Shown here: positions 19,221 through 37,967 of the stretch, piece after piece
How the letters are laid out: each line of letters begins with the position of its first letter
Numbering within the stretch: the first letter of the stretch is position 1
DNA from: Candidatus Gastranaerophilales bacterium
GTDB lineage: Bacteria; Cyanobacteriota; Vampirovibrionia; Gastranaerophilales; CAJFVJ01
DNA: 64,000 nucleotides
Assembly (NCBI GenBank): GCA_944323485.1
Contig: CALUSR010000001.1
Span: 66,437-130,436, forward strand
Direction: 5' to 3'
Program-made: the position numbers and the translations under genes
The notes under the pieces: model-generated
What the model was told of the DNA's origin: nothing
Database searches by the model: none
Seen by the model: only the letters and a program-made list of their open reading frames with translations

Positions 19221-19317
19221 AAGTTATTCTATTTTAACATCTTTTGACCGCAACAACATGAAATGTATAAAACGGATTTATCAAAAAATAAAGCAAATTT
19301 CATGGTAGAATTGCATC

Positions 19318-21999
19318 ATGAATACAAAAAACTCTGACGTTAAAATAAGAAATTCAATTAAAGAATTTGTCGAATACTGGAAAGATAAAGGCTACGAAAA
19401 AGGCGAAAGCCAAAAGTTCTGGCTTCAACTCTTGAGAGATGTCTTATGTATCGAACATCCGGAACAGTTCATTTCTTTTGAGGATAAAGTTCTCCTCGAC
19501 CATACAAGTTTTATTGACGCTTATATCCCTTCTACAAAAGTCTTAATTGAACAAAAAAGCTCTGATAAAGATTTAAATAAGGCTATAAAACAATCTGACG
19601 GCAGTTACCTGAACCCGTTTCAACAGGCAAAAAGATATATATCAGAACTTCCGCTTTCACAACACCCCAGATGGGTGGTAACATGCAATTTCCAAAAATT
19701 TCGTGTCTATGATATGGAACGCCCGAACGGTGAACCTCAGGAAATCTTATTGAAAGATTTGGAAAAAGAGTACTACAGACTCTCCTTTCTTGTAAACAGC
19801 GGAAGCGAACACCTGAAAAAAGAAATGGAAGTATCAATACAGGCAGGCAATATCGTCGGACTTCTTTATGATGCACTTTTGAATCAATATATTGATAAAA
19901 CAAGCGAAAAAACTCTCAAAAGTTTGAACATTCTCTGCGTCAGACTCGTTTTTTGTCTGTATGCGGAAGATGCCGGAATATTCCCGAAACATAACCAGTT
20001 TCTTGATTACCTCTCTCTCTTTGAAACAAACAGGATGAGAAAAGCCCTAATCGAACTGTTCGAAGTGCTAAACACAAAACCTGAAGAAAGAGACCCTTAT
20101 CTGGAACAGGAACTTGCTGCATTCCCCTACGTAAACGGCGGATTGTTTGCTGATGAACACATCGAAATCCCGAATTTCACGGACAAAATTCGAGATTTGC
20201 TCCTGAATAAAGCCAGCGCCGATTTTGACTGGTCAGAAATAAGCCCTACAATTTTCGGAGCGGTTTTTGAAAGTACCCTGAATCCTGAAACGAGAAGAAA
20301 AGGAGGAATGCACTACACCTCAATCGAAAATATACACAAAGTCATTGACCCGCTCTTTATGGATGAGCTCACTTCCGAATTTGAAGAAATCAAAAACTCC
20401 CCCCATGGAAAACTTCGGGATAAAAAACTTACAAGCTTTCAGGACAAACTTGCCTCATTAAATTTTCTTGACCCTGCCTGCGGCAGCGGGAATTTTTTGA
20501 CCGAAACTTATATTTCTCTGCGTAAACTCGAAAACGAAATTTTGTTCGAACTGCAAAAAGGTCAAATAACAATAGGACTTGTTACAAATCCCATAAAAGT
20601 TTCTATCTCCCAATTTTTCGGCATTGAGCTTAATGACTTTGCCGTAACTGTCGCCAAAACAGCTCTCTGGATTGCAGAATCCCAGATGATGAAGAAAACT
20701 GAAGACATTGTCCATATGGATTTGGATTTTCTGCCGCTAAAAACCTACGCTAATATTGTTGAATGTAATGCTTTGCGAATAAATTGGGAAGATGTCATTC
20801 CGAAAGACAAACTCAACTACATCATGGGCAACCCGCCGTTTGTGGGGTATTCTTTACAAACAAAAGAACAAAAAGAAGATATTATCTCAATTTATGTTGA
20901 TGAAAATGGCAAATCTTACAAAACTTCAGGTAAAATAGACTATGTTGCAGGCTGGTATTTTAAATCTTCAGAACTGATGCAAAACTCAAATATAAAAACA
21001 GCGCTTGTTTCAACAAACTCTATTACTCAGGGAGAGCAGGTTGCAGGTGTTTGGAAACCGTTGTTTGACAGATTTAATATCCATATTGATTTTGCACACA
21101 GAACTTTTAGATGGGATAGTGAATCAAATTCAAAAGCTCATGTCCATTGCGTGATTGTAGGTTTTAGCTGCACACCAAACAGAAATAAAAGAAAATTGTA
21201 TACAAATGAACGCATGCAGCTTGTTGATAATATTAATGCATATTTGATTGATGCACCGAATGTTTTTATAGAAAGCAAAAATCAACCGATATGTAATGTT
21301 CCCAAAATGACAACAGGCAACCGTCCTGCTGACGGAGGTCATCTTATAATAGAAGCCGAAGATTATGAGGAATTTATAAAAAAAGAGCCAAAAGCAAAAC
21401 AGTATATTAAACGCCTAACCGGAGCATTAGAGTTTATAAACAACAAACCTCGTTATTGTTTATGGCTTGTGGGAATAACTCCAAACGAATTAAGAGCAAT
21501 GCCAGAAGTTCTAAAAAGAGTCGAAGCATGTAAAGAAGACAGACTAAATGGAGCCGAGGACAGACAAAAACTGGCAGCTACTCCCTGGTTGTTCAGAGAG
21601 ACTAATTGTCCGAAATCATATATTATAGTTCCGGCAACATCTTCAGAAAATAGAAAATATATTCCTATGGGATTTCTAGATAATAATACAATAGCCACAA
21701 ATGCTGCAATTATCATACCAAATGCAGATAAATATTATTTTGGAATTTTGGAATCAAACGTACACATGGCATGGACAAAAGCTGTATGTGGCAGATTAAA
21801 GAGCGATTACCGTTATTCAAAAGATATTGTTTACAACAACTTTCCATGGTGCACCCCGACAGATGAGCAAAAAGCAAAAATCGAAAAAACTGCACAGGGA
21901 ATTTTGGACGCACGTGCCTTATACCCTGATTGCTCGCTTGCTGATTTGTATGATGAACTCACAATGCCTCCTGAACTCAGAAAAGCACATCAAGTGTAA
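19318..21999 (+). pseudogene. MmeI-family type IIL/IIG restriction-modification enzyme, 5' portion; C-terminal 44 codons displaced by an insertion
   Basis: N-terminal PD-(D/E)xK (FIDAYIPSTKVLIEQK), SAM motif LDPACGSGNFL and catalytic GNPPFVG. The frame reads ...ELRKAHQ, then V-stop inside foreign DNA. The in-frame continuation ENDKAVMEAYGF... is at 36692 onwards. Confidence 0.8.
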
Positions 22000-22043
22000 A
22001 GTGACACCAAATTTGAGAAAAAGTGACAGGGGAGTTTGAGAAA
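21998..22043 (+). repeat. tandem sub-terminal repeats (putative transposase binding sites), left end
   Basis: AAGTGACACCAAATTTGAGAAA is followed directly by AAGTGACAGGGGAGTTTGAGAAA. The shared parts are AAGTGACA and TTTGAGAAA. Confidence 0.5.
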
Positions 22044-22094
22044 AATAATACCCTTATATGTATTTGCTCATCCATAATTTATTTAATTTGTTTG

Positions 22095-22103
22095 TGCTAC
22101 AAT
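22095..22103 (+). promoter_or_regulatory. candidate extended -10 promoter element for the cargo operon
   Basis: TGCTACAAT (TGnTAnAAT) lies about 20 nt upstream of the AAGGAG SD and the ATG at 22124. Confidence 0.3.
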
Positions 22104-22123
22104 CTTAAAAAAGGAGTTAATCA

Positions 22124-22711
22124 ATGAAGTTAAATTCAGTAGATATTATTCTTTTACTTTTGTATAGCCCAGGTTACACTGACATGATTAACGAACCGAT
22201 AGATGGGCGAACAAAAATTACTAAAATGTTGTTTTTATTTGAAAAAGAGTTAGCTAAAAAGTTTAAATTAGATAAATTAACGGGAAATGAAGATATTTTT
22301 CGATTTACAGCATGGAACTTCGGTCCTATGTCAACAACGATATTTAAAAATTTAGATTTTTTAAAAAACATTGGCTTTGTAGAAAGCACTTATGCGACTT
22401 CTTATAGTGTTACCGCAGAAGAAGTAAGTGAATATAATCATTATTGCAATGAGTTAATTGAAAACGAAAATAATATAACAGAGTATAAAAGTGAGAAATT
22501 TTGTCTTACTGCAAAAGGAATAAAATTTATTGATGATAAGGGCAAATATCGTTTATTATCAGATAATCAAAAAAAATATTTAAGAGAGTTTAAATCTAAG
22601 CTCAATGGTGCAAATTTGAGAGATATTTTACGATATGTCTATATGACATATCCAAATTATACAGAAAAATCGATAATTAAAAATGAGGTGTTGGGAGATA
22701 ATGATGTCTGA
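22124..22711 (+). CDS. SocA/Panacea (YwgA-like, DUF4065) domain protein, candidate antitoxin
   Basis: 195 aa. GRTKITKMLFLFEKE...FRFTAWNFGPMSTTIFKNLDFL matches the Panacea pattern (K.QKLLYL...F.AW..GPV...vY). AAGGAG SD. Confidence 0.5.
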   Translation: MKLNSVDIILLLLYSPGYTDMINEPIDGRTKITKMLFLFEKELAKKFKLDKLTGNEDIFRFTAWNFGPMSTTIFKNLDFLKNIGFVESTYATSYSVTAEEVSEYNHYCNELIENENNITEYKSEKFCLTAKGIKFIDDKGKYRLLSDNQKKYLREFKSKLNGANLRDILRYVYMTYPNYTEKSIIKNEVLGDNDV

Positions 22712-23276
22712 TTTACAAATTGTGCCAGTAGTTTATCCTATAATTTCAGGGGTTCTTACTTTAGGAATATCATTATTCAGTTTATTTTCTCCATTTGTTG
22801 GTACAGAAATAGAGTTTACAAAAGATGCAAATTGGTATCTTTCCAAATTACAAGGTATGCGTATAGACAAATTAAAAAGGTTTATTTCTGAAGTTTTAAA
22901 TTTAAAAGTCGCAGAAGATAATTCCGAAGATAATAGAATGCCTTATGTTGTAGATATATATGAGTATTTCTCTACAGACATGGAAGAAATTATCCATCTT
23001 GAAAATAAAATAAAGCATTTTCTCAATAAATATAGAATAACAATGACTTCTTTTATGATTGTTCTATGGTTGTCCGTTACGTCAATTATTATTAGTTTAA
23101 TATTTAAACAAATAATAAAGTTAAATATTTTTTTAAATTACATTTTTTATTTTGCCATATTATTAGTATTAGTACAACTATTTAATATTATATATCTTCG
23201 TTACTTGTTTATAAATTCTCAAAATACGTATCAATTGCACATTTTTAGAGGAAAAGAAAAATGGAATATGAAATAG
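22701..23276 (+). CDS. three-TM membrane protein, candidate toxin/effector
   Basis: Start at the ATG at 22701 (GGGAGA SD), overlapping the upstream stop by 11 nt. One N-terminal TM (VVYPIISGVLTLGISLFSLF) and two C-terminal TMs (FMIVLWLSVTSIIISLIF; IFYFAILLVLVQLFNIIYL). Confidence 0.5.
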   Translation: MMSDLQIVPVVYPIISGVLTLGISLFSLFSPFVGTEIEFTKDANWYLSKLQGMRIDKLKRFISEVLNLKVAEDNSEDNRMPYVVDIYEYFSTDMEEIIHLENKIKHFLNKYRITMTSFMIVLWLSVTSIIISLIFKQIIKLNIFLNYIFYFAILLVLVQLFNIIYLRYLFINSQNTYQLHIFRGKEKWNMK

Positions 23277-23695
23277 ATATGGTTAATAAAGCAATTAAAT
23301 TTTATACTAATTTAGGATATAAAGTTTGTACAGAAGTTCCATTTTTACATCGTTCTATTGATTTAGTATATGAAAATAATGGGCAGTTAAATTCTGTTGA
23401 ATTTAAAAGAAGGGACTGGAAAAGAGCTTATGCACAAGCAAAAACACATATTTATGGATCAGATAAGGTTTATGTATGCATATTAAAGCCGTCAAAAGGT
23501 ATATCGCAAGAACTTAAAGATTATTTTAAGGATAGCCCGATAGGTCTATTAGTTTTTGATGAAACAAATACAAATTCTTTAATAGAAGAAATTTTTCCAG
23601 CTTCTAATGAACATAAAAAATGGAATATAGGTCAACAATGGTTAAAAAAAGCTTTTAACAAAAGACTCGAGGAGGAATTATGCCACAACAGTTAA
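23261..23695 (+). CDS. small PD-(D/E)xK nuclease-fold protein
   Basis: 144 aa. TEVPF...SIDLVYENNGQLNSVEFK gives an E...D-x13-E-x-K arrangement. GAGGAAAAG SD. 16-nt overlap with the upstream gene. Confidence 0.45.
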   Translation: MEYEIDMVNKAIKFYTNLGYKVCTEVPFLHRSIDLVYENNGQLNSVEFKRRDWKRAYAQAKTHIYGSDKVYVCILKPSKGISQELKDYFKDSPIGLLVFDETNTNSLIEEIFPASNEHKKWNIGQQWLKKAFNKRLEEELCHNS

Positions 23696-25065
23696 AGCAT
23701 TTAATGCGATTAGGTACTCATGGTGAAAAAAAATATTTTAAAGATTTTAAAGAATATTATGATGCGGTAATCATTAATGCAAGCATGATTGCTCATACTG
23801 TTAATTCAATGTCTACTTTTTTAGGTTGTGAACTTTCAAAACCATTTATCATTGATCCTCAAACATATGCGTTTCAATCATATACGCATCTATTACAACA
23901 AAGTAAAAACAAAAAAGATATTTCAGATGTTAAAGTAAAAAAATCTTTTTGCACTTTAATAGAAAACTATGGCGAAATGTTAAAAAAGATTATATTTGAT
24001 GAAAAACGCTCTATTAAAAGTTCTGATTTTAAGAATGATGATAACCAAAATTTGAAAGATTTTTGTAAAAATGTTTTAAAATATCAATTAGAAACAATCA
24101 CATCAGAAACACAAAATAATTCAGAATATAGTGAATATATTGAATATGAAATTGAAAATTGCAAAGATAATTTATCTTTAACTTTAGTCCCTGCTTTTTT
24201 AATTGCTCCATATTTTTATATGACACCTAATACATATTCGGATTGGATTGATATAAATATAGATGCTATAAATATTTCAAAAGAATTAAATTCCAAAGAT
24301 ATTGAAATTTATGCACAAATTGTAATTGATAAAGATATATTGTTAGATGATAGTAAAATTGAAGAATTGTGTGATAAATATAATTCATCAAGTGCGGAAG
24401 GATTTCTTATTTGGTTAGATAAATTTGATGAAAAAGAAGTAAGTGAAATTTATCTTGAAAAATTTATTAATTTTTTAAAATTATTGAAATGCAATGGAAA
24501 ACCGATATATCAAGTTTATGGTAGTTATTTTTCTATTGTTTTGACAAAAGATATACTTTCAGGAGTTTGTCATGGTATGGAATATGGTGAAAATAGAGAT
24601 GTTTATCCTGTAGGTGGCGGGATTCCTGTTTCGAAATTTTATTATCCAGCATTACACAAACGTTTATTATATCGTGATGCTTTAGATTTATTATTGAGAA
24701 ATGGATATTTGGAAGATTTAGAGGTTTACAATTCTAATGTATGTAATTGCAAAAATTGTCAAGAAATTATTAATACTCCAATTGAAGATTTTTCAAAATA
24801 TGGTGATGTTAATTCAACAACATTTAAACGAAAATCAGGCAATAGAGAATCTACTGTAACAATGGATTATCCAACTAATGATGCTAAAGATCTATGTTTA
24901 AGACATTATTTATACAATAAAATTACAGAATATAAATATGTTGAAAGCAAAAGTTATTCAGATTGTGCCGAAGATTTAATTCAATCATATAATAAGTACT
25001 ACGATTATTTAGGAGACAATGTTGATTATTTGAAGACTTGGCATAATATAATATTAAAAATTTAA
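23680..25065 (+). CDS. 461-aa unknown protein with tRNA-guanine transglycosylase/DpdA-like motifs (tentative)
   Basis: PFIIDPQTYAFQ (cf. TGT TDSGGFQ), GVCHGMEYGENRD (cf. GVDMFDCVMPTRN), CNCKNC (CxCxxC zinc motif) and a downstream LRHYL (cf. YLHHL). GAGGAGG SD. 16-nt overlap with the upstream gene. Confidence 0.3.
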   Translation: MPQQLKHLMRLGTHGEKKYFKDFKEYYDAVIINASMIAHTVNSMSTFLGCELSKPFIIDPQTYAFQSYTHLLQQSKNKKDISDVKVKKSFCTLIENYGEMLKKIIFDEKRSIKSSDFKNDDNQNLKDFCKNVLKYQLETITSETQNNSEYSEYIEYEIENCKDNLSLTLVPAFLIAPYFYMTPNTYSDWIDINIDAINISKELNSKDIEIYAQIVIDKDILLDDSKIEELCDKYNSSSAEGFLIWLDKFDEKEVSEIYLEKFINFLKLLKCNGKPIYQVYGSYFSIVLTKDILSGVCHGMEYGENRDVYPVGGGIPVSKFYYPALHKRLLYRDALDLLLRNGYLEDLEVYNSNVCNCKNCQEIINTPIEDFSKYGDVNSTTFKRKSGNRESTVTMDYPTNDAKDLCLRHYLYNKITEYKYVESKSYSDCAEDLIQSYNKYYDYLGDNVDYLKTWHNIILKI

Positions 25066-25068
25066 AGT

Positions 25069-26229
25069 ATGATGAAAAAAAATAAAAAATTAAGAGTATT
25101 TGAAGCTTTTGCAGGATATGGTAGTCAACGAATGGCTCTTCGTAATATTGGTATTCCTTTTGAAATAGTTGGAATTTCCGAAATTGAAGGAGAAGTTATT
25201 CGCTCTTATGCTGCTATTCATACTGATTTTTTAGAAAAAAGAAAAAATTTAGATAAATTTGTTAATCTTGATAAAGAAGAACTAATTGCTTTTTTAAAAA
25301 AACTCAATGTTCCGCTTGATTATAAAACATTTGTAAATAGAGCTCCTAAAATGAAAATAGAGCAGCTCAAAGAAATGTATCTTGCAAATAAATTAATTAA
25401 TAACTTTGGTGATATTACAAAAATTGATCCTGAAAAATTACCAGATTTTGATTTGTTTACATATTCTTTCCCTTGTCAAGATATCTCTGTTGCAGGATAC
25501 CAAAATGGTTTAAATGAAAGCTCCGGAACCAGATCTTCGTTGTTATGGGAATGTTGCAAAATCATAGAGGCAAAAAAACCTAGATATTTAATGATGGAAA
25601 ATGTTAAAAATCTAGTGGGCTGTAATCACAAAGCAAACTTTTTGAAGTTTTTAAGATATCTTGAAACTATTGGATATAAAAACAGATGGGCTGTTTTAAA
25701 TGCAAAAGATTATGGCACTCCACAACATCGAGAAAGAGTTTTTTGTATAAGTATTTTAGATGAAATGAATTATTTTAGATTTCCTAAGCCAGAACCCTTA
25801 ACAACAAAGTTAGCAGATATTTTGGAACAAGATGTTAATGAAAATTTCTACTTAAAAAATAATCAATTCATGGATTGCCCTATAGTACAAGATTATAGTT
25901 ATTGTATAGATTCCAACTATTGGAAAGGCTCTACATTAAGTAGTTTTTTAGAAAAACGCAGACGTCAATTAGTTACAGATAAAATTAATGAATATGGTGA
26001 ATATATGGTACGTCGTTTAACTCCGCATGAAGCTTGGAGATTAATGGGTGTATCTGATGAAGATTTTCACAAAGTTTCTTCTATAATGAGTAATACTAGT
26101 TTATATAAGCAGGCTGGAAATAGCATTGTAGTAAGTGTTTTAGAACGTATTTTTGCTAATTTATTTATTAATTACGATACAACTATACAAGACCCAGATT
26201 TTGCAGTACAATTACCTTTATTTAACTAA
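25069..26229 (+). CDS. DNA (cytosine-5)-methyltransferase
   Basis: Motifs FEAFAGYGS (I), SFPCQDIS (IV), ENVKNL (VI), QHRERVF (VIII) and GNSIVV (X). Confidence 0.9.
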   Translation: MMKKNKKLRVFEAFAGYGSQRMALRNIGIPFEIVGISEIEGEVIRSYAAIHTDFLEKRKNLDKFVNLDKEELIAFLKKLNVPLDYKTFVNRAPKMKIEQLKEMYLANKLINNFGDITKIDPEKLPDFDLFTYSFPCQDISVAGYQNGLNESSGTRSSLLWECCKIIEAKKPRYLMMENVKNLVGCNHKANFLKFLRYLETIGYKNRWAVLNAKDYGTPQHRERVFCISILDEMNYFRFPKPEPLTTKLADILEQDVNENFYLKNNQFMDCPIVQDYSYCIDSNYWKGSTLSSFLEKRRRQLVTDKINEYGEYMVRRLTPHEAWRLMGVSDEDFHKVSSIMSNTSLYKQAGNSIVVSVLERIFANLFINYDTTIQDPDFAVQLPLFN

Positions 26230-26248
26230 ATTTTAATAGAGGTATTTG

Positions 26249-27058
26249 ATGACTGCAAAAGAAGATATCATAGAATTGTTCCATAAAAACGTAAAAGGCA
26301 AAAGACCGAATGTCGAAGGAACAAATGAAAGACACGATGGTAGACAAGGACAATGGCTAGAACATCAATTTGGTATTCATTCTAATGACTATAATGCAGC
26401 TGACTTATGGGGATATGAGTTAAAAAATGAAACGACATCCAAAACAACATTTGGAGATTGGTCAGCAAATGAATATGTTTTTAATAATCCGGAATACCGT
26501 GATTATTTTGCAGGCACTAGTAAATTTGAAAAAAGAGAAGATTTTTTAAGAATATTTGGTAAACCTAATGAAGAAAAAGGTGGAAGATGTTCTTGGTCTG
26601 GTTCTCCTTGTCCCAAAATCAAATGCTTTAATGATTTTGGACAAAAACTTGTTATTGATAAGAATAAAGATATTTTGGCTATATACTCATACAGTCAAGA
26701 TAAAAGAATAAACAAAGCTGAAATAGTACCCAAAAGTTTGCAGTTAGAAGAATTAGTGTTAGCACGTTGGTACGGTGAAATATCACCAACTACTAAAAAA
26801 AGAGATAAATGTTTAAAAGCCAAATTAGAAGATAAATTTAATGATAAAGGTTGGTTTACATGTAAAACAGATGCGACGGGATGTTATTGTAAAATCTGTT
26901 TTGGCAAACCAATGAATTATGACGAATGGTTGGAGCTAGTAAAACAAGGAATTGTATTCTTTGATAGTGGTATGTATCAAGGCAACAAAAGACCTTATTC
27001 ACAGTGGCGTGCAAATAACAATTTTTGGGATAGTTTAATAGAAGAAACTTATGAATAA
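26249..27058 (+). CDS. type II restriction endonuclease (PD-(D/E)xK, MvaI/BcnI- or ScrFI-like)
   Basis: About 270 aa, located between two m5C MTase genes. GQWLEHQFGI...AADLWGYELK carries a D-x5-E-x-K catalytic motif similar to MvaI/BcnI-type enzymes. Confidence 0.55.
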   Translation: MTAKEDIIELFHKNVKGKRPNVEGTNERHDGRQGQWLEHQFGIHSNDYNAADLWGYELKNETTSKTTFGDWSANEYVFNNPEYRDYFAGTSKFEKREDFLRIFGKPNEEKGGRCSWSGSPCPKIKCFNDFGQKLVIDKNKDILAIYSYSQDKRINKAEIVPKSLQLEELVLARWYGEISPTTKKRDKCLKAKLEDKFNDKGWFTCKTDATGCYCKICFGKPMNYDEWLELVKQGIVFFDSGMYQGNKRPYSQWRANNNFWDSLIEETYE

Positions 27059-27131
27059 ATTGTGTCGATGTGATAAAAAAATATGCTTAATATAATAGCT
27101 TATTGCTCTTTCTTATGCTAATATTCAAGGT

Positions 27132-28079
27132 ATGAAATCAAAAAAGAAAGTAAAAATAATTGATTTGTTTGCAGGAATCGGTGGAATTAGACTTGGTTTT
27201 GAACAAGCTTTTAATGGAAATGTAGAATGCGTATTTACAAGCGAAATTGATAAATATGCGGTACAAACATACATTGAAAACTTTGGGTCAGACAATATTT
27301 ATGGAGATATAACTCAAATATCAGAAAAAGATGTTCCAGATCACGACATTTTACTTGCAGGGTTTCCTTGTCAACCATTTTCTCAAGCTGGTTTAAAAAA
27401 GGGATTTAATGACACTAGAGGAACATTATTTTTTGATATTGAAAGAATTTTACTTGAAAAGAAGCCAAAAGCTTTCTTGTTAGAAAATGTCAAACAGTTA
27501 AAAGGGCACGATAAGGGAAATACTTTAAAAGTTATACTTGAACACTTGCATAATGCAGGATATAAAACTTTTGTGAAAGTTCTTGCAGCGAAAGACTTTG
27601 GAGTTCCACAAAATCGTGAACGTATATATATTGTTGGATTCCTAGATAATAGTATAAATTTTGAATTTCCAGAACCAACATTAAAAGAAACTAAAGTTGG
27701 AAATATATTAGAAAATAATCCTGATGATAAATATACAATCTCTGATAAATTATGGGCTGGACATCAAAGAAGAAAATTAATGCATAAAGAAAAAGGGAAT
27801 GGTTTTGGATATGGATTATTTAATGCAAATAGTCCTTATACTAATACTATTTCAGCACGTTACTATAAGGATGGCAGTGAAATTTTAATAGAGCAAGATG
27901 GGAAAAACCCACGGAAATTAACCCCAAGAGAGGCCGCAAGATTGCAAGGATTCCCAGAAGAATATAAAATTACAGCTGTATCAGACAATCAATTATACAA
28001 ACAATTTGGTAATAGTGTATGTGTTCCAGTTATAGAAAAAATTGCTGAAAGAATAAAAGTTAATCTTGAGCAAGATTAG
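27132..28079 (+). CDS. DNA (cytosine-5)-methyltransferase (M.HhaI-like core)
   Basis: DLFAGIGG, GFPCQPFSQAG, TRGTLFFDI, ENVKQL, QNRERIYIVG and QFGNSVCVPV. Confidence 0.9.
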   Translation: MKSKKKVKIIDLFAGIGGIRLGFEQAFNGNVECVFTSEIDKYAVQTYIENFGSDNIYGDITQISEKDVPDHDILLAGFPCQPFSQAGLKKGFNDTRGTLFFDIERILLEKKPKAFLLENVKQLKGHDKGNTLKVILEHLHNAGYKTFVKVLAAKDFGVPQNRERIYIVGFLDNSINFEFPEPTLKETKVGNILENNPDDKYTISDKLWAGHQRRKLMHKEKGNGFGYGLFNANSPYTNTISARYYKDGSEILIEQDGKNPRKLTPREAARLQGFPEEYKITAVSDNQLYKQFGNSVCVPVIEKIAERIKVNLEQD

Positions 28080-29739: not shown

Positions 29740-29790
29740 AATAGAATTCTACCATAAATTTTTAGTATAATAATTTTGGGGAGATTTCTT

Positions 29791-30135
29791 ATGGATATTG
29801 AATTTTTAAAAGAAAAAACAGTACAATTCAGAGATGCAAGAGATTGGAAGCAATTCCATACCCCTAAAAATCTAGCAATGGCATTATCTGTTGAAGCCTC
29901 AGAATTAGTTGAATTATTTTTGTGGGATGACAATACCAGTTCTTTTAGTATGACAAGAACTAAAAATGAACAACTGCAAGAAGAAATGGCAGATGTATTA
30001 ATATATCTTTTATCAATGTCGGATATTCTTGATATAGATTTATCTAAAGCCGTATTAGACAAATTAGAAAAAAATAATAAAAAATATCCTGTTGAAAAAT
30101 CAAAAGGATCTTGTAAAAAATATACAGAACTATAA
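29791..30135 (+). CDS. MazG-like nucleoside triphosphate pyrophosphohydrolase
   Basis: The ATG at 29791 has a GGGGAG SD. FRDARDWKQFHTPKNLAMALSVEASELVELF and EEMADVLIYL are typical MazG/dCTPase-like motifs. Confidence 0.75.
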   Translation: MDIEFLKEKTVQFRDARDWKQFHTPKNLAMALSVEASELVELFLWDDNTSSFSMTRTKNEQLQEEMADVLIYLLSMSDILDIDLSKAVLDKLEKNNKKYPVEKSKGSCKKYTEL

Positions 30136-30288
30136 TGATGTTTAAATATATTTTGATTTTGAGTAATGAATTACCATCCGAAAAAAGAATTAGACTGAAT
30201 AAGTGTGAAAAATATCGGATTAAAAAAGTTATTTAAATAGTATTCAAAATAAAATTATGTTTTAATGATACGTTTTACATGTAATCTC

Positions 30289-30316
30289 TTGATATTTATG
30301 TGCTTGAGAGTAATAT
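30289..30316 (+). promoter_or_regulatory. candidate sigma70-type promoter
   Basis: TTGATA, a 16-nt spacer, then TAATAT, upstream of the small-ORF cluster. Confidence 0.3.
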
Positions 30317-30335
30317 ATGTCATTGCCGATAAGAG

Positions 30336-30560
30336 GTGGCAATGATTGAGTTAGGCAAAAAATATAAACTTAAAAAGATTAAAGATTTTAGAAACTCTGA
30401 TAATGCATATTTCAAAGTAATTAGTTTATACAACTTTGACACTGTAATCTGCGAAAACGATTACGGAGAAAGATTTGTATTTATGAAAGAGTTTTTAACT
30501 GATTCAAATATGCCTGATGAAACTTATTCAGATTTAATGCTTGAAAGGAAAGAATCATGA
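30336..30560 (+). CDS. hypothetical small protein
   Basis: 74-aa ORF (GTG; alternative ATG at 30342). Its stop overlaps the next start (ATGA). Confidence 0.35.
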   Translation: MAMIELGKKYKLKKIKDFRNSDNAYFKVISLYNFDTVICENDYGERFVFMKEFLTDSNMPDETYSDLMLERKES

Positions 30561-30763
30561 CGAAAAAAGATTATGCACTTTACGGTACAAAGATTTTAAA
30601 CCACAAGACAGGTGAAATCGGATTATTAATTAAAACTTGGAAAAACAAGTATGCCGATGCAGAAATTGATTATGCAACTTGTGTTGATAAGCTCGGCAAA
30701 CGCTACAATATCAAACTTGATGAGATTTTACCGTTGGAGGAAACTGATGATTTTGAAAAATAA
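30557..30763 (+). CDS. hypothetical small protein
   Basis: 68-aa ORF, translationally coupled to the upstream ORF. Confidence 0.35.
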   Translation: MTKKDYALYGTKILNHKTGEIGLLIKTWKNKYADAEIDYATCVDKLGKRYNIKLDEILPLEETDDFEK

Positions 30764-30987
30764 ATTAACAAGAGAAACCATAGAAATAACTTATCCTGAA
30801 TTTAGAAAAAAGTTTGCAAAAGAGATAAGTACAGCTTTTGAAAGTTATTGAAGAACACAACTAAATAAATATTCTTATAATTTCAAAGATGATAATTCAA
30901 TGGAATACAACTTTTATTTTCAATTACAGTGGAATTTCAATCATTTTGGGAATTCTGTCTGGTATATAGAAAGGCTATGAGGGAAAA

Positions 30988-31194
30988 ATGAAAAAATATT
31001 ACTTAGAAGATAAAGAATTTCAATTTCTGTACGCTAAAAGCAAAAGAATTTACCATTCGTTGGTTGTAATAGATTATTTTTGCAGTAACTATAATGAAAT
31101 AGAAGAAATTGCGAATATATCGGGTATAATTAATTTCATAAAAAATGAAGCAGATATGCTATATTCAAAAATGATTAATTGTGAGCTTGATTAA
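30988..31194 (+). CDS. hypothetical small protein
   Basis: 68-aa ORF with a GAGGGAAAA SD. Confidence 0.35.
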   Translation: MKKYYLEDKEFQFLYAKSKRIYHSLVVIDYFCSNYNEIEEIANISGIINFIKNEADMLYSKMINCELD

Positions 31195-31319
31195 ACCCCG
31201 TTCAAAAAGTGTTCAAAAGGCTCTGTATTGAATTTATTTTAAAAATACAAGGGATTTTATTATAAAATAAAAATAGCCTGCTTAAATTTGGTTTAAACGA
31301 GGCTATTTGATAGAAGGTT

Positions 31320-31940
31320 TTATACATCTTGTAATCTTGATATCCTGCGAACTTCATATTCCGGAATTTGGTATTTTTCTCTTATGTCATCTTCGTAATT
31401 TATATAAAGGTCATAGAGTTTGTAGTTAAAAAATGATTTATCGCTATTTAGACAAGGTATTCTTTTTATGTCTTTATAACTTATTGCAGGAACATAAGAT
31501 TTATCTGAGCCTTGCAACATAAATTCCAAAAGGATATATCTGGTTATAACTTCCGCAAATTTTGGAGCTATCTCCATATATTCTTTAGCAACTGTTTTCA
31601 TTATTGATTTGATATAATCTTGAAACGCTTCTTGTTTCTTTACTCTGGCATTATATATATTTATTTGCAGGCTTTTCTTTTTATTATCTACACCTTTAAT
31701 TAAATCTTGATTAACCTCTATTTCTTCTTCAATTTTCTTTAGTCTTTTATTGATTTTAGAAACATCTTTCCCTTCTGCAAGTAAAGCAGGACGCTCCTCT
31801 TTTAGTTTTACGATTTCATCTTGCAGGGTTTTGATTTTATCTTGTGCTTGCTCCTTTCTTTCATCCATTGCTTTTATTTCGCCAAAAAATTTTCTGCATT
31901 CCGAAAATACTCTTTCCATTTTTTCCTTTGCATCTGTCAT
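31320..31940 (-). CDS. coiled-coil protein, unknown function (transposon module)
   Basis: 206 aa. The N-terminal half is a heptad-rich Lys/Glu coiled coil. It is the last gene of the minus-strand transposition block. Confidence 0.45.
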   Translation of the reverse strand: MTDAKEKMERVFSECRKFFGEIKAMDERKEQAQDKIKTLQDEIVKLKEERPALLAEGKDVSKINKRLKKIEEEIEVNQDLIKGVDNKKKSLQINIYNARVKKQEAFQDYIKSIMKTVAKEYMEIAPKFAEVITRYILLEFMLQGSDKSYVPAISYKDIKRIPCLNSDKSFFNYKLYDLYINYEDDIREKYQIPEYEVRRISRLQDV

Positions 31941-31955
31941 ATAAGCTCCTTTCTT

Positions 31956-32156
31956 TTACTTTAAATTTCTGTAATTAACACCAAGCTCATAAAATATGAA
32001 AATTTCAAAATCTCTGTTATATCTTTCTCCATTTATGAGTCTTGTAATGTATGACTCCGACATTTTTAACTTCTTAGATAAAGCTTTTTGAGTAATTCTT
32101 TTATATGCCAAGGCTCTTTTAATATTTTCCATTCTTTTCTTAAGAAACATCAGCAA
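31956..32156 (-). CDS. XRE/Ner-like helix-turn-helix protein
   Basis: 66 aa. ITQKALSKKLKMSESYITRLINGE HTH. Confidence 0.55.
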   Translation of the reverse strand: MLMFLKKRMENIKRALAYKRITQKALSKKLKMSESYITRLINGERYNRDFEIFIFYELGVNYRNLK

Positions 32157-32161
32157 ACTCC

Positions 32162-32836
32162 TTAATTAAACACTATTCTGTTTAAACTGAATTCGTTTCT
32201 CGGAGTAAGTCTTTTAACTTGAAAACTAAAACTGTTATTTGTAAAACCTTTATGATTTGCATAACTTAGCACTTGTTTTAATAAAGCCATTGTATTTTTA
32301 AATCTTCTCGGACTTAAATCCTTTTCTTCGCAATATCTAAAAAAGTCTTTTATAACAGAATCATCAATTTCTTCAGGTCTTTTTGTTTTGAAGTACGGTA
32401 AAATATGGTTCTTTAATAATGAGCGATAAGTTTGTATGGTACTTGGAGTGCAAAATTTTGCAGCATATTTTTCAAGAAAATTGTTTATAATTTCATAAAA
32501 AGAAAAATTTTCGCTTAGTTCATTATGTGGTACAAAAAATCCGTAATTTTTAGGCTTGTCGGACTTTTCTTTTTTCTCTTTTTCTTTCTGTTTTTGTTTA
32601 AATTTATCATATTCGCTTCCTTCAATAAAAGGTTTTACACGTGTTGTTTTAGGCGGTTCAAAGTTTTCAAAATCTTTGATAAAAAGATAGCCTTGTGTAT
32701 CTTTTTTAATCACGTTTTCTGTAATCAATTGTTCAAGAAGTTGGTTTAATTCTTCTTTTGGCATTTCTGCAAGCATAAAAATTTCATTGTAAGTAAAAGC
32801 TTTTAATTTTCTTGCAAGATAAATAAGTTTTTCCAT
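32162..32836 (-). CDS. DNA-binding protein: winged-helix N-terminus plus integrase-type SAM-like core-binding domain, no catalytic domain
   Basis: 224 aa. Lys-rich linker. The C-terminal TIQTYRSLLKNHILPYF...IKDFFRYCEEKDLSPRRFKNTMALLKQVLSYA resembles the N-terminal SAM-like domain of tyrosine recombinases. Confidence 0.45.
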   Translation of the reverse strand: MEKLIYLARKLKAFTYNEIFMLAEMPKEELNQLLEQLITENVIKKDTQGYLFIKDFENFEPPKTTRVKPFIEGSEYDKFKQKQKEKEKKEKSDKPKNYGFFVPHNELSENFSFYEIINNFLEKYAAKFCTPSTIQTYRSLLKNHILPYFKTKRPEEIDDSVIKDFFRYCEEKDLSPRRFKNTMALLKQVLSYANHKGFTNNSFSFQVKRLTPRNEFSLNRIVFN

Positions 32837-32848
32837 TTGTTCTCCTTT

Positions 32849-33538
32849 CTATTTCAATAAAAACCGCATATCTTTTAAGGTTATAATTGATAAATCATTT
32901 GCTTTGGCATAATTTTCGGCTTTATCTATAATCTTAACTATCTGTCGAAATCTGTTTTCCGTATTTTGTATGTGTTCTATAGCGGAATTATCAAATTTAA
33001 TTTCTGATAGCTCATTGATAAGATTTTTTGTGTCTTCAACCGAAAATTTTTGAAACTGTAATATCTCGGATAACCTGTCATACAAATGCTTATAGCGTTT
33101 TATTTTTTTATCAGCATAACTCATACCGATTAGAATAATAGGTGTATGTGTTCTGTCATGGATATCTCGGAGCATTTCAATTGTTGATTTTTCTTGGGTT
33201 AAATAATCAATTTCATCAACAATAATTAATCGTGGTCTTTTAATCAATTCACGTGTTATTTGTTCAAATATGTCCGCTGTTCTATAAAAAGGACTATCGC
33301 CGAGTTCTTTTACTATTTCTTCCAGCAGCCATTTTGTTGACATAGATTGTTTTGCACTCACAAATATCGCATCATCTTGGTGATTTGATACCCACCAAAT
33401 AGCAGCTCGAGATTTTCCAAGACCTGGCTCTCCATATATTAATGCCATCCCAGGTACACCTTGTGCTCTGTTTTGCAGGTTATTTATGGTGCTGATAAAA
33501 TTTTTCACGTTCTTTGTATTAACAAATACAGGCTTCAT
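32849..33538 (-). CDS. AAA+ transposition ATPase (MuB/TniB/TnsC-like)
   Basis: Start at the ATG at 33538 (AAAGGAG SD). Walker A GEPGLGKS and Walker B LIIVDEID. Located immediately downstream of the transposase. Confidence 0.75.
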   Translation of the reverse strand: MKPVFVNTKNVKNFISTINNLQNRAQGVPGMALIYGEPGLGKSRAAIWWVSNHQDDAIFVSAKQSMSTKWLLEEIVKELGDSPFYRTADIFEQITRELIKRPRLIIVDEIDYLTQEKSTIEMLRDIHDRTHTPIILIGMSYADKKIKRYKHLYDRLSEILQFQKFSVEDTKNLINELSEIKFDNSAIEHIQNTENRFRQIVKIIDKAENYAKANDLSIITLKDMRFLLK

Positions 33539-35498
33539 TCTTCTCCTTTCTATAAATTTGTTTATATTCTTCACTTAATTCGTATTCTTTAAACCAAGTG
33601 ACATCCTTGTCATTTTCAAATCCGTTTTGCAAATGCCATTCGTAGCGTTGGTACTTAAATTCAAAATTTGGTCTGCCATCTGTTGGTTCTGGATCTATAT
33701 TTCTTGTTATTTTAGGTTGTTGAACCGTTTCAATTTTAGGTATTTCTTGCCAATCCAATGTTTTAATATTTTGGGATTTAAGATAATTTTTCAGTTCTTT
33801 TACGGTTTGTTTTTCCAAACGTTTTTGTTGTCGCAGTTTAAATTTCAATTCTTCCTGATCTTTGATATCTCCTAAATAATTTGCCATAGGGTGAATTGGT
33901 ATAACTCTTTGAGCTTCGCAAATAAATTCATTTTTAAGTGTATAAATTTTTATTTTTGTTAAGTCAGATAAGCTGTATTTAATAATTACTCTGCCTTTTA
34001 AACCGTATAAACAATCATTGTAATAATCAGCTTTTAAAAACCTGATTCCGTTTCTTTGTATATTTTTAATTTCACAACTCAGCATTAAATCATCAAGTTT
34101 TTCTAAATCAACACCACTCCCTTTTCCTTCTTCAAGAACTTCGCCAATGGTTTTGCCTTTTACATTAGGGCATTTAAGAGTGCGGTGAAAACGCATGTAT
34201 GCTTCCAACATTTGTGACAGTTCTTCTATCGTAGGTATAAATTGAATATGGTGTTCTTTATGGAATTTCTCATTCCTTTTCATATATGCAGGTTGGTCTT
34301 TTATTGACGAACCGACAAAAGAAGGTAATAACCTTTCAAACCCGTCTTGCAGTTCTCTGAAAAATCTTTCAATAACTTTTGCTCTTGCATTATAAGGTTG
34401 AGCAAAAACTGGTGTAATATCAAGTTTATTAAATAAGCCGTTAATACCGCTTTCGTGTAAATCTCCGGTGAAAAATTTAGCTCGAAAAGCTTTCCCGTTA
34501 TCCTGATAACAAATTTTAGGAATTTTTCCTAAATTAATAATAGAATTTCTTAAAGCTGAAGATATGGCTTGAGTGTTTTCTTCAAGCATAATTTCATAGC
34601 CAACCAAAGCTGTTGATTTCCAATCGAGATAACCGATTAAAGTCGGTCTGCATGGTCTTCCCGTAAACGGATTTAAACATTGAACAGATAATCTGTGACC
34701 GTCTGCTACTAAAACATCTCCGACTTCTAATTTTGAAATATCTCTTATTATGTATGGTTGAACTTTATCTCTTAAAGCTTTTTGTCCTTCTCTTGCAAGT
34801 ATCCATTTATCATAATTATTGCGTTTAAAATTCTCTGCATATCTTCTAAAATTTCTTTCACTGCTTGGAGATTCCAAACCTTTCTTTTCAAGTATATACT
34901 TGGCAAGTTTGGTTGCTTTACCTATATTTGTTTTATTAGGAGTTAATAATAAGGATTTGAAAACTAATTCTTCTTCATGAGTAAGTTGAGGATTAGATTC
35001 TTTTTCTCCATAATCATAATTTGGAATAAGCTTTGTATAGTCGTCATTTCCTTTGATAGCTTTATGCCATCTATAAATAGTTCCGATAGAGATTTTTCCT
35101 AAGATATTAAACAAATAAGAATATATTTTTCCGTCATTATAAATATCAATAAATTCTTTTCCTGCTTGAGTTTTATTCTCAGAAATTTTCTTATAATCAA
35201 CCCATAGATTTACTAAATCATATCGAGCTAAGGCAATTTGTCGAGCATGAGGAGGTGTAATAGAGTTTTTTCTCAAAACAGGTTCCCTATTTTTCTCAAT
35301 TTCACATTTACTTTTCTCAAAATCGATTAAATTTTGAGTCGTTTCATTTAATGCAGGAACAAATATTTCATACATCAAACCCTTCTTACCGTTGACTTGG
35401 CGAACAACATATTTATTATTAGCAACTCCTTTTCTGATAGCACGTGGAGTTACTCCTTGTATTCTTGCAAGTTCATTAACTGTCAACCAGTCTTTCAT
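33519..35498 (-). CDS. DDE transposase (Mu A/Tn552/TnsB-like, rve core)
   Basis: 659 aa. N-terminal HTH (LTVNELARIQGVTPRAIRK). DDE triad candidates in LVADGH, YQDNGKAF and KVIERFF. Confidence 0.8.
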   Translation of the reverse strand: MKDWLTVNELARIQGVTPRAIRKGVANNKYVVRQVNGKKGLMYEIFVPALNETTQNLIDFEKSKCEIEKNREPVLRKNSITPPHARQIALARYDLVNLWVDYKKISENKTQAGKEFIDIYNDGKIYSYLFNILGKISIGTIYRWHKAIKGNDDYTKLIPNYDYGEKESNPQLTHEEELVFKSLLLTPNKTNIGKATKLAKYILEKKGLESPSSERNFRRYAENFKRNNYDKWILAREGQKALRDKVQPYIIRDISKLEVGDVLVADGHRLSVQCLNPFTGRPCRPTLIGYLDWKSTALVGYEIMLEENTQAISSALRNSIINLGKIPKICYQDNGKAFRAKFFTGDLHESGINGLFNKLDITPVFAQPYNARAKVIERFFRELQDGFERLLPSFVGSSIKDQPAYMKRNEKFHKEHHIQFIPTIEELSQMLEAYMRFHRTLKCPNVKGKTIGEVLEEGKGSGVDLEKLDDLMLSCEIKNIQRNGIRFLKADYYNDCLYGLKGRVIIKYSLSDLTKIKIYTLKNEFICEAQRVIPIHPMANYLGDIKDQEELKFKLRQQKRLEKQTVKELKNYLKSQNIKTLDWQEIPKIETVQQPKITRNIDPEPTDGRPNFEFKYQRYEWHLQNGFENDKDVTWFKEYELSEEYKQIYRKEKNEACIC

Positions 35499-35723
35499 GT
35501 TATTCTCCTATTTTGGTATACAAAATTTGCACCATAAATCACACACAACATTAGCTCGAAAGTCCTTAATATTGGAGTTTTAAAGGTGTTTTATTTAATT
35601 TTCGTATCATAGATTTTATTAAACAAATGTAAATGCTTAAGTTGATTTTTAATAAAATTTATGATATATTTTACACAAAGTATAAAACATTAAATAAATT
35701 TTGTCAATCGATTAGGTTACCAA

Positions 35724-36248
35724 GTGAACGAAAACGAAAAAATTAAACAAATCAGAAAATCTTTAAATCTTACTCAACAGGAAATTGCAGACAGTATAGG
35801 AGTAAGTAAACAATATTTTAGCAGAGTAGAAAACGGAATAACCGAACTTAGTAAAGAAAAAGCTACTATGTTATGTAATAATTACGGAATTTCTCTTGAT
35901 TGGTTACTTTGTGATAAAGGTGGCATGTTTATAAACGATAATACGATTACAAACAACCTATTGAATGACACCGATAATATACAAGGTGTATCAAGTATAT
36001 TAGGTGCGTTTTCAACTTACTTGGAAGTAGTATTTCCAATTATAGAATCAGAACATCCGAAAGCTTTAATAAGAGATAAAATAAGAGCTACTCAAGAACT
36101 TTTCTTTAATGATTTATTTAAAAGTGATAGAGTTTTGAAAACTCGTAAAGAACTAAAAAGTATATTGGAAAAAGATTTTGCGGATAAAGAGAAAGTTTTA
36201 AATGCTTATTACAAAGCTTATGTAGAAAGATGTGAAAAAAATAATTAA
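35724..36248 (+). CDS. XRE-family repressor (Mu c-like position)
   Basis: 174 aa. LTQQEIADSIGVSKQYFSRVENG HTH. Divergent from the transposase and reading toward the element end, as the Mu c repressor does. Confidence 0.65.
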   Translation: MNENEKIKQIRKSLNLTQQEIADSIGVSKQYFSRVENGITELSKEKATMLCNNYGISLDWLLCDKGGMFINDNTITNNLLNDTDNIQGVSSILGAFSTYLEVVFPIIESEHPKALIRDKIRATQELFFNDLFKSDRVLKTRKELKSILEKDFADKEKVLNAYYKAYVERCEKNN

Positions 36249-36559
36249 TGTCTGTTTGTCTTGACAATTTAGATATTTTTTAAATTTTTTCTCTCTTTTT
36301 CTTCTGTTCTTCTCTATATTTTTGTATTTTTATAGGTAAAATCTGCCTCGAATTGCTATTTTGATTTTTATTTTTACTTGATTATTGACTTCAATTCGGT
36401 TCTTAAAATCGGAATGAGTTTGAAATTATAAAGGAACTTAGTTCCACCTTAAGTTCCCCCTTGACTTATTGTCTTTTATTAGGACTTTTGAAAAATATCC
36501 GAATTTAACCGTTATATTTAGCTTTCGTGCATAGCAAATTCCAAAATCAAAAATTTTTA

Positions 36560-36676
36560 AGGACAATGATGACCTAATAAAGTCCAATTTGCCCATTTTT
36601 TGTCAATTTTAAAAAATAGGCTCTATCTTAAACACGTTTTACCTTTCAGCCCCTGTTCCCTTATTATCATTGTCCT
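36560..36676. repeat. inverted 11-mers near the right end of the element
   Basis: AGGACAATGAT is at 36560-36570 and its exact reverse complement ATCATTGTCCT is at 36666-36676, 10 bp from the inferred terminus. Confidence 0.5.
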
Positions 36677-36688
36677 ATTAATTTATAT

Positions 36689-36823
36689 CAAGAAAACGAC
36701 AAAGCCGTTATGGAAGCCTACGGTTTCAAAAAACGGGATGAAAATGACAAACTCCGCTGGCTTACAGAGCAGGAAACCGTCGCAGAACTGATGAAAATGT
36801 ATCTTGAACTTACAAACAAATAA
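36689..36823 (+). pseudogene. displaced C-terminal 44 codons of the MmeI-family gene
   Basis: Reads QENDKAVMEAYGFKKRDENDKLRWLTEQETVAELMKMYLELTNK-stop. It joins ...LRKAHQ at 21993 in frame once the insert and one copy of ATCAAG are removed. Confidence 0.8.
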
Positions 36824-36827
36824 AAAA

Positions 36828-36850: not shown

Positions 36851-36855
36851 ATAAA

Positions 36856-37949: not shown

Positions 37950-37967
37950 AAATTATCCTCTTTTTAT

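Follow-up and report, generated by a model that had tools for sequence, protein, structure and literature searches.

The window analysed here, a 64-kb stretch (64,000 nucleotides) of contig CALUSR010000001.1 from a Candidatus Gastranaerophilales bacterium, carries at 21995-36687 a 14,693-bp element that is very likely to be an intact, autonomous and recently active Mu-type DDE transposon, laden with defence cargo and devoid of virion genes. It is a single insertion in a resident gene for a restriction-modification (R-M) enzyme, and both this and its boundaries are near certain. An earlier note, made from the sequence alone, had placed a Mu/Tn552/Tn7-like transposon at 21995-36686; the left boundary stands, and the right terminus has been moved by one base to 36687, the last base of ...TTTATA. 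Relatives of the transposase (TnpA), sought in one genome per species, were found at over 570 places, almost all of them in metagenome-assembled genomes of Gastranaerophilales/Melainabacteria, and apparently belong to a large and undescribed family of Mu-type cargo transposons in gut Melainabacteria. No description of the family was found in the full-text literature, coverage of which was incomplete, and hence this is absence of evidence only. Related loci are cited below by L numbers.

The insertion and its boundaries

The insertion can be read from an empty site. The earlier note had proposed looking for such an allele in related genomes, and L087, a 314-kb metagenome contig from a close relative of the host, contains the uninterrupted sequence ...GCACATCAAGAAAACGAC... 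within a whole MmeI gene (938 aa). The contig is colinear with both flanks of the element, matching window 15972-21994 along L087 1-6030 (91% identity) and window 36687-36827 along L087 6025-6165 (98% identity). Where the empty site has TCAAG once, the window has it twice, at 21990-21994 on the left and at 36688-36692 on the right, and 5-bp duplications flank other copies also. The hexamer ATCAAG is present at both junctions (21989-21994 and 36687-36692), as had been observed earlier; the target-site duplication of 5-6 bp deduced from it is real, but is not of 6 bp, since TCAAG comprises five. The A at 36687 is part of the element because the right end is identical in at least ten copies despite unrelated flanks: read inward it is TATAAATTAATAGG, and the terminus TATAAATTAATAGGACAATG is the same in L003, L005, L007, L008, L014, L083 and L085-L088.

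The interrupted gene encodes an MmeI-family type IIL R-M protein on the forward strand (Pfam MmeI_N, hel, Mtase, TRD and C, of which MmeI_C is truncated). Its 5' part occupies 19318-21994, and the disrupted open reading frame (ORF; 19318-21999) now encodes 893 aa, ending Q-V-stop within the element. The 3' remainder (...ENDKAVMEAYGF...LTNK*) lies in frame on the same strand at 36693-36824 and is matched in L087; since the MmeI reading frame resumes at 36693, the element is an insertion within the gene. The last ~45 residues of the resident enzyme are lost through the insertion. The same insertion was found again in several independent metagenome samples (L093-L095 and L097), which indicates that the MmeI-disrupted allele persists in the population. 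In the composition profile of the window, a drop in G+C from ~0.37 to 0.25-0.31 across 22001-37000 coincides with the element.

Independent insertions, drawn from contigs with TnpA copies 87-99% identical, have the same ends at unrelated sites, which answers the earlier proposal to define the ends by a search for further copies. The complete copies in L003, L083 and L088 are flanked by duplications of CTTAT, AGTAG and TCAAA respectively and, together with the window's element, span 12-15 kb. In these three, cargo and transposition module are not the independent insertions that would have spoken against the earlier note, since a single pair of ends, flanked by a single 5-bp duplication, always encloses both. 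The family has moved recently; a sister element is found in five different contexts (L083-L087) with 99.98-100% identity along the shared length, and the window's own element type occurs at a second locus (L096).

Ends, transposition genes and cargo

The ends of the element are asymmetric. The left, cargo-side end (21995-22050, forward strand) has the terminus TGTAAA and ACAGGGG at 22026-22032; its 50 bp are conserved (94-98%) at the far end of L003, L083-L085, L088, L089 and L096. It contains two direct repeats of ~22 bp, AAAGTGACA(CC/GG)..TTTGAGAAA, at 21998-22019 and 22020-22041, which are candidate transposase-binding sites. The right, repressor-side end (36249-36687, reverse strand) is 439 bp of non-coding sequence with CCCCTGT at 36650-36656. 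An alignment of nine right ends, from elements with TnpA 67-98% identical, contains invariant blocks; the conserved features comprise (T/G)TGACA / GTCAAG motifs in several copies, the palindrome GGAAC...GTTCC, AAGAACCGAATTGAAGTCAATAAT and a hairpin that, with its T-run, resembles a terminator for the repressor gene. The palindrome lies within 36390-36470 (columns 225-312 of alignment A6), next to the nearly invariant AAGAACCGAATTGAAGTCAATAAT; its inner stem varies between relatives, and the changes are partly compensatory (CTTA/TAAG versus CCAA/TTGG).

The two ends share the start T(G/A)TAAA and, in the same register, ACAGGGG at positions 32-38, counting 36687 as position 1 on the right, and the placement of this motif ~31 nt inside each terminus had been noted correctly. 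Compared with each other, the two ends match at 27 of 55 positions, against 19.6 +/- 2.7 for random pairs drawn from the element, of which 0.9% reach 27. A terminal inverted repeat, of which the earlier note had found no clean form, thus exists, but it is imperfect and weak. The right end starts TATA (TA-3') throughout the window's close clade and TGTA in more distant relatives, and the left end starts TGTA or TATA, varying by copy.

When compared with relatives at 98% identity, the conserved backbone of the element covers 30541-36687 (~6.1 kb), and otherwise only the ~50 bp of the left terminus are common. Its genes follow the Mu-like order recognised earlier, with a repressor on the forward strand and then, on the reverse strand, a 659-aa transposase, an AAA+ ATPase and the remaining backbone genes. 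It had been proposed to compare the transposase and the ATPase with the MuA/MuB, Tn552, TnsB/TnsC and TniA/TniB families, and both score best against Mu-phage families. TnpA (33519-35498, reverse strand) matches phrog_310, a Mu-phage transposase family, at E 1e-88 over residues 1-649, that is over its full length, as well as Pfam Mu-transpos_C (2e-13) and HTH_Tnp_Mu_2 (1e-3). The best PDB match to a profile of 20 TnpA relatives is MuA (4fcy; 1.3e-8, 136-572), ahead of ShCAST TnsB (6e-5). The DDE triad D266, D333 and E377 is invariant in these relatives and aligns with the MuA motifs GDGY, IDNT and PVER, the corresponding MuA residues being, as we take them, D269, D336 and E392. Exact-sequence look-up returned no match for TnpA, and its relatives in phage and plasmid collections were all below 28% identity (Mu-like phages, and plasmids mainly of Staphylococcus and Enterococcus). 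Directly after the transposase gene comes that of the MuB/TnsC/TniB-like ATPase (241 aa; 32849-33574, reverse strand), which has Walker A GEPGLGKS and Walker B LIIVDE and matches Pfam AAA_22 (2e-21) and TniB (2e-8), phrog_296 (6e-55; in PHROGs a phage DNA transposition protein) and, in PDB, TnsC (7e-7) and MuB (8xvb; 1.4e-5).

Reading outward and divergent from TnpA is a 174-aa HTH_3 protein of cI/Mu-c type (35724-36248, forward strand; Pfam HTH_3 3e-15, Phage_CI_repr), which is predicted to be a repressor and is conserved at this place in every long-TnpA relative. Beyond the ATPase and the third gene (described below) lie a 66-aa HTH_3 protein (31956-32156, reverse strand; 3e-5), conserved at 53-98% across clades, and a clade-conserved 206-aa protein (31320-31940, reverse strand) with weak SMC/coiled-coil-type matches only. 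Small ORFs on the forward strand (74, 68 and 68 aa, plus a 66-aa frame) occupy the border between cargo and backbone at 30336-31194; tblastn found them at 41-76% amino acid identity in many family members, distant clades included, and the DNA at 30538-30973 is ~73% conserved. Protein-family scans gave no family match for them. A similar set of ORFs (~66-77 aa) is also present in L044 (2473-3228), L064 (18541-19294) and L082 (18035-18788), and the side of the transposase on which such a set is found is reversed in some loci.

No match to TnsA, TniQ, a resolvase or a phage structural protein was found among the element proteins scanned against PHROG and Pfam, the tiniest ORFs being left out, and the original description of an element without phage structural genes is upheld to that extent. 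The IMG/VR viral collection held no close relative; relatives at 40-51% identity occur there on contigs of ~38 kb. One of these, L116 (38.4 kb), has two tandem transposase-ATPase modules at 2161-8915, the first including a third gene that resembles the 224-aa gene of the window and the second a separate Mu-like module, and may represent a family member beside or inside a Mu-like prophage.

The cargo slot (~22050-30540) extends from the left end to the small conserved ORFs. Its layout is the one described earlier (a 7-gene co-directional block, a convergent gene and a MazG-like gene), and its defence character is borne out by an LlaMI-type endonuclease with two C5 methylases here and by other R-M, GmrSD, HEPN and SIR2 genes in sister copies. 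The first four co-directional genes (195, 197, 144 and 461 aa; 22124-25065, forward strand) form a candidate defence module. The 195-aa protein has weak, below-cutoff Pfam matches to HTH_45, a winged helix-turn-helix (wHTH) family, and SocA_Panacea, and a PADLOC candidate match to PDC-M19A (1e-9); beyond these weak matches to its first gene, none was found for the block. The 197-aa protein is hydrophobic and by eye membrane-like. The 461-aa protein has 727 representative relatives and no Pfam or PDB match, and PDB sequence searches with the 559-, 461- and 144-aa cargo proteins returned nothing useful.

The remaining three co-directional genes constitute a type II R-M system (25069-28079, forward strand; Pfam), which is of the ScrFI/LlaMI CCNGG type. 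A C5 methylase at 25069-26229 is followed by the LlaMI-family endonuclease at 26246-27058 (RE_LlaMI 2e-72) and by a second C5 methylase at 27132-28079, the pair matching DNA_methylase at 3e-73 and 3e-109. These genes recur at 98-100% identity in L008 and L088. The convergent gene (28060-29739, reverse strand) encodes a 559-aa DNA-glycosylase-like protein of the HhH-GPD fold (OGG1/AlkA-like), as the earlier label 'glycosylase-like' had anticipated. By sequence it has no Pfam or PDB match, and its identity was resolved by fold search alone: an AlphaFold2 (AF2) model with pLDDT 91.9 matches OGG/AlkA-type glycosylases in Foldseek (E 2e-5 to 1e-4, probability 1.0). K328 and D347 are invariant and are probably the HhH lysine and the catalytic aspartate. 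Neighbourhoods of this gene were examined in the element family, one Clostridium genome and one Nitrosopumilus genome; the homologues in Clostridium butyricum and Nitrosopumilus adjoin a C5 methylase and an LlaMI/MvaI-BcnI endonuclease, and therefore the protein is an accessory of such R-M systems. Its possible roles are the repair of deamination at methylated sites and a part in restriction. The 559-aa family is widespread in bacteria and archaea at 40-47% identity, for example L090 (6001-7584) and L091 (6001-7593). Last in the slot is a MazG-like nucleotide pyrophosphohydrolase of 119 aa (29776-30135, forward strand; Pfam MazG-like 5e-18).

Sister copies carry other genes in this position. 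L003 has a C5 methylase, an NgoFVII endonuclease, Z1, GmrSD_N and HEPN genes; L001 has HNH and Eco57I-type type IIG genes; L083-L087 have an AlwI endonuclease with two Dam-type methylases, SIR2_2 and a 742-aa protein; and L088 and L089 have the R-M block of the window, with an HTH-Peptidase_M78 gene replacing the four-gene block. Cargo, mostly R-M, is swapped among near-identical backbones, which form a fixed chassis.

A third conserved protein and placement beside tRNA genes

Immediately 3' of the ATPase gene is a third conserved gene (32162-32836, reverse strand), whose 224-aa product joins a winged helix to a tyrosine-recombinase core-binding (SAM-like) domain (Pfam Phage_int_SAM_3/4/5), without a catalytic domain. 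A gene of this family, recognised by hidden Markov model (HMM), occupies the same position in 75 of the 89 loci examined. The core-binding part of the AF2 model has a pLDDT of ~86-92, and the top Foldseek match is 3nrw (TM 0.79, rmsd 1.4 Å). What the earlier note had called a small DNA-binding protein can thus be named more exactly by its tyrosine-recombinase core-binding domain.

In other clades the third protein is ~550 aa long and comprises a wHTH, a Mu I-gamma-like HTH, the core-binding domain and a Phage_integrase catalytic domain; such genes lie in L022 (12626-14260), L029 (5918-7570), L033 (12616-14283), L043 (12454-14115) and L018 (12687-14408). When seven long homologues were aligned with XerD, six (L022, L029, L033, L043, L059 and L077) had lost both Arg and His, and the seventh, from L018, retains R...R...H...Y and is probably an active recombinase. 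Loss of catalytic residues in six of seven implies that catalysis is dispensable and that DNA binding is the part retained. The idea that the third gene is a cointegrate resolvase is disfavoured, the catalytic domain being absent here and its catalytic residues mostly gone in the long homologues. From its domains and by analogy, the 224-aa protein could be a target selector or a non-catalytic DNA-binding subunit; this is the least secure step in our account, to which we give somewhat less than an even chance.

A tRNA-Ala(UGC) gene identified by ARAGORN and Rfam (36856-36931, reverse strand) faces the right end of the element with its 3' end, 168 bp away. At the gathering threshold Rfam found two tRNAs only. 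Among 82 transposase-oriented loci, 36 have a gene for tRNA or transfer-messenger RNA (tmRNA) upstream, and in all 36 it is on the transposase strand; TnpA relatives occur downstream of tRNA/tmRNA genes far above chance, and their placement is non-random. The window's clade has landed independently downstream of tRNA-Ala(UGC) at least eight times, at varied positions and in both orientations. The right end is nearest the tRNA in the window (the gap being 168 bp), L083 (68 bp) and L001 (385 bp), and the left end is nearest in L087 (34 bp), L089 (37 bp), L096 (42 bp), L014 (~52 bp, inferred) and L085 (111 bp).

Placement is tighter in a sister clade with a short TnpA, lacking the first ~75 residues, and no repressor. 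In all 14 measurable loci (L030, L039, L046, L049, L061, L062, L064, L065, L068, L073, L078 and L080-L082) a gap of 39-203 bp separates the right end from the 3' end of a tRNA or tmRNA gene before it, and in 13 of the 14 this gap is 39-127 bp; in L068, the locus with 203 bp, a duplicate of the tRNA 3' end precedes the element. The junctions of L053 and L075 were judged by eye and are outside the 14. The neighbours are genes for tRNA Leu, Lys, Gln, Tyr, Ser, Thr or Ile, or for tmRNA, with the tRNA always on the transposase strand. Left ends in this clade were not found by inverting the right-end motif.

Several further sequences lie near tRNA genes. Segments of ~170-200 bp bracketed by direct repeats of a tRNA 3' end (L001 8384-8616, L014 8569-8811 and L068 9458-9660) share GAGAAC...GGTTCGAGCGA...GAGCAGAG and sit between tRNA genes and transposon ends; they may be what is left of another tRNA-integrating element, or miniature versions of it. 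In L082 a 42-bp 'ghost' right end (TATAACCTTTCAGGACAG..., 9546-9587) lies directly outside the current one, suggesting repeated use of the same tRNA-proximal site. In the window itself, ~1.4 kb of G+C 0.317 with three short ORFs separates tRNA-Ile(GAU) from tRNA-Ala(UGC) at 36932-38329, and could be a further case of insertion downstream of a tRNA gene; no rRNA gene was found in the 64-kb window.

Proposed mechanism, rival explanations and known systems

The machinery would be descended from, or share ancestry with, transposable (Mu-like) phages. In the mechanism we propose, the MuA-like transposase (triad D266/D333/E377) would bind the asymmetric ends (two 22-bp repeats on the left and a multi-block end of ~440 bp on the right) and attach the 3' ends at points staggered by 5 bp, producing the TCAAG duplication. 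The MuB/TnsC-like AAA+ ATPase would deliver or activate target DNA, and the divergent cI-type repressor would keep the element quiet. As there is neither a TnsA-like second nuclease nor a resolvase, Mu-like chemistry is expected, in which nicking and joining would be followed by replication or repair, and we infer that this chemistry is replicative. The slot at ~22050-30540 acts as an exchangeable cargo bay, filled differently in sister copies. The 224-aa protein would bias targets to the region just downstream of tRNA/tmRNA genes, that is of tRNA-Ala in the window's clade, a role analogous to that of TnsD/TniQ or TnsF in Tn7-like elements.

Tentatively, and with rather more doubt than conviction, we suggest that a Melainabacteria-wide family derived from Mu phages has independently evolved Tn7-style 'safe-site' homing, with a domesticated tyrosine recombinase as a TniQ-independent selector. 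Some clades would have kept the recombinase in an inactivated form and others only its core-binding domain; the selector would read a feature common to tRNA and tmRNA genes and pass the site to the MuB-like ATPase, and the window's element would be a repressor-controlled member favouring tRNA-Ala. Several observations weigh against the proposed mechanism. About half of the insertions of the window's clade lie away from any tRNA (L003, L007, L008, L012, L016 and L088), and those that lie near one do so with gaps of 34-385 bp and in both orientations, whereas the spacing of Tn7 is fixed. Enrichment near tRNA genes could arise in part because insertions survive in dispensable island DNA. In the short-TnpA clade, third proteins 83-92% identical adjoin tRNA Leu, Lys and Thr alike. 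The ends resemble inverted repeats only weakly (27/55), and the right terminus is TA-3', whereas MuA and TnsB substrates typically end in CA-3', so that the 5'-TG...CA-3' pattern is not found here. Lastly, a 100%-identical sister element in L085 (6155-6160 / 19493-19498) has non-matching 5-bp flanks, CCTAC and GTAAA, and in L084 (6160-6206) the terminal 47 bp of the right terminus are replaced by sequence with left-end-like repeats; rearrangements therefore occur, and the two copies show signs of inter-copy rearrangement or intramolecular transposition.

The main rival is an ordinary Mu-type transposon that inserts nearly at random, with proximity to tRNA genes produced by purifying selection and by the island-rich, dispensable DNA past them, and with the core-binding protein serving end-complex architecture or regulation or surviving as the relic of a cointegrate resolvase. 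Such an explanation, which we regard as unlikely yet worthy of serious attention, draws on the variable distances and orientations, on the many sites away from tRNA genes, some of them within genes such as MmeI here, on the tRNA 3'-end duplications in L001, L014 and L068 as signs that other elements use these regions too, and on the probably active recombinase of L018. It accounts poorly for at least eight independent landings less than 400 bp from one tRNA gene, far above neutral expectation for genomes assumed to be ~2-3 Mb, or for L089 and L096, independent insertions in the same orientation only 4-5 bp apart. Nor does it readily explain the short-TnpA clade, nearly always 39-127 bp past a tRNA/tmRNA gene in a single orientation, and most recombinase homologues are without catalytic residues, so that resolution is an unlikely function for them. 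Recognition of particular tRNA types by the third protein was considered and dropped, its sequence not tracking the type of the neighbouring tRNA; the closely similar third proteins beside different tRNAs mean that any recognition must be of a feature common to tRNA genes. Two possibilities are left: either something that tRNA and tmRNA genes have in common is recognised, or a preference for the region acts together with selection.

Other explanations are much less probable. A decayed Mu-like prophage, in which an early-region remnant has had its late genes replaced by unrelated DNA and become non-autonomous, is suggested by the Mu-phage-like transposase, ATPase and repressor and by the IMG/VR relatives on contigs of a size typical of Mu-like phages; we hold it to be quite improbable, given two intact ends with a flanking 5-bp duplication, a ~6.1-kb backbone that carries varied cargo at many sites and near-identical copies in five contexts, complete elements of merely 12-15 kb, and the lack of a close relative in the viral collection or of any structural-gene match. 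RNA-guided homing, with a transcript of the non-coding right end pairing with the tRNA gene in the manner of the homing spacers of type V-K CRISPR-associated transposons (CAST), would fit the 439 bp of conserved non-coding sequence with its conserved palindrome and the occurrence of closely related elements beside different tRNAs. An RNA guide or att-type repeat was nevertheless rejected after 16 elements had been tested: the longest substrings shared with an element's own tRNA (8-12 nt) were the same as the non-cognate background, and matches to cognate tRNAs no longer than to others argue against a guide RNA. No Rfam family, CRISPR or Cas gene was found in the element, and we rate this mode of homing as very improbable. 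Least credible of all is a genomic island that entered site-specifically beside tRNA-Ala by means of a tyrosine recombinase. The tRNA gene 168 bp away, the integrase-derived domain in the third gene and the duplicated tRNA 3' fragments at related loci would accord with an island of this kind, but a catalytic domain is missing from the 224-aa protein, the junctions consist of a 5-bp duplication within the MmeI gene rather than a repeat of the tRNA 3' end, and the termini are of transposon type and identical at unrelated sites.

In relation to known systems, the element resembles Mu in having an outward-reading repressor near one end followed by transposase and AAA+ ATPase, in the full-length match of the transposase to the Mu family (including its N-terminal DNA-binding region, Mu-transpos_C and an aligned DDE triad), and in its 5-bp target duplication, asymmetric ends with several sub-terminal sites and lack of a second-strand nuclease. 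Unlike Mu, it has no virion, lysis or late genes, measures only 12-15 kb and terminates in TA-3' on the right; furthermore, it has an additional conserved subunit derived from a tyrosine recombinase, defence cargo and a bias to sites downstream of tRNA genes.

With Tn7-like elements, Tn6022 and CASTs included, it shares a MuA-superfamily transposase, a TnsC-like ATPase, a dedicated third DNA-binding protein and a 5-bp duplication; large, variable and defence-rich cargo (PMC8649781) and 'safe-site' insertion downstream of tRNA genes (PMC9881144) are likewise found in both. It differs from them in lacking TniQ/TnsD and TnsA (the endonuclease of cut-and-paste transposition, which some Tn7-like subgroups lack too), in possessing a Mu-type repressor, in its loose spacing to the target and, in the window's clade, in an orientation that is not fixed; its transposase and ATPase, homologous to TnsB (6e-5) and TnsC (7e-7) as members of the same superfamilies, have better profile scores against Mu-phage families. 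The closest parallel to the third protein comes from Tn6022, whose TnsF, a tyrosine recombinase that has lost its activity, works with TniQ in choosing comM as the target (PMC10293859), and the 224-aa protein is likewise a non-catalytic tyrosine-recombinase homologue encoded with transposition genes. In domain architecture, on which the comparison is based, the two are distinct: TnsF has zinc fingers, two core-binding domains (CB1-CB2) and a partial catalytic domain (pCAT) and acts through TniQ, whereas the 224-aa protein has a wHTH and one core-binding domain, with no TniQ gene in the element. Across the element family, third proteins occur with or without the Mu I-gamma-like HTH and with or without an inactive catalytic domain, again unlike TnsF.

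Tn552 and Tn5053 (Tn402) have in common with the element a Mu-transpos_C DDE transposase, a TniB-like ATPase, a short target duplication and the character of a cargo transposon without phage genes. Matches to the transposase in plasmids, at ~25% identity, are mainly in Staphylococcus and Enterococcus records, and we take these to be Tn552-type copies. Unlike Tn552/Tn5053, the element has no serine resolvase (BinL/TniR), no TniQ, no long perfect terminal repeats and no targeting of res sites. It is Mu-like in chemistry and Tn7-like in lifestyle, with defence cargo and tRNA-side 'safe sites'.

The family represents a third route, besides the Tn7-like and Tn5053/Tn552 elements, by which MuA/MuB-type machinery has become a dedicated carrier of defence genes, and it does so in a poorly studied gut phylum. 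Were TniQ-free steering to tRNA flanks to prove true, the DNA-binding module of a site-specific recombinase would have been recruited independently as a target selector, and the family would offer a compact three-protein system in which to study how AAA+ adaptors read their targets. The cargo brings to light two widespread uncharacterised families, one of R-M-linked proteins with the HhH-GPD glycosylase fold and the other of the 461-aa type. In the window, one defence element has knocked out part of a resident MmeI-type system, and the family accounts for a recurrent hot spot of defence islands downstream of tRNA-Ala in Gastranaerophilales.

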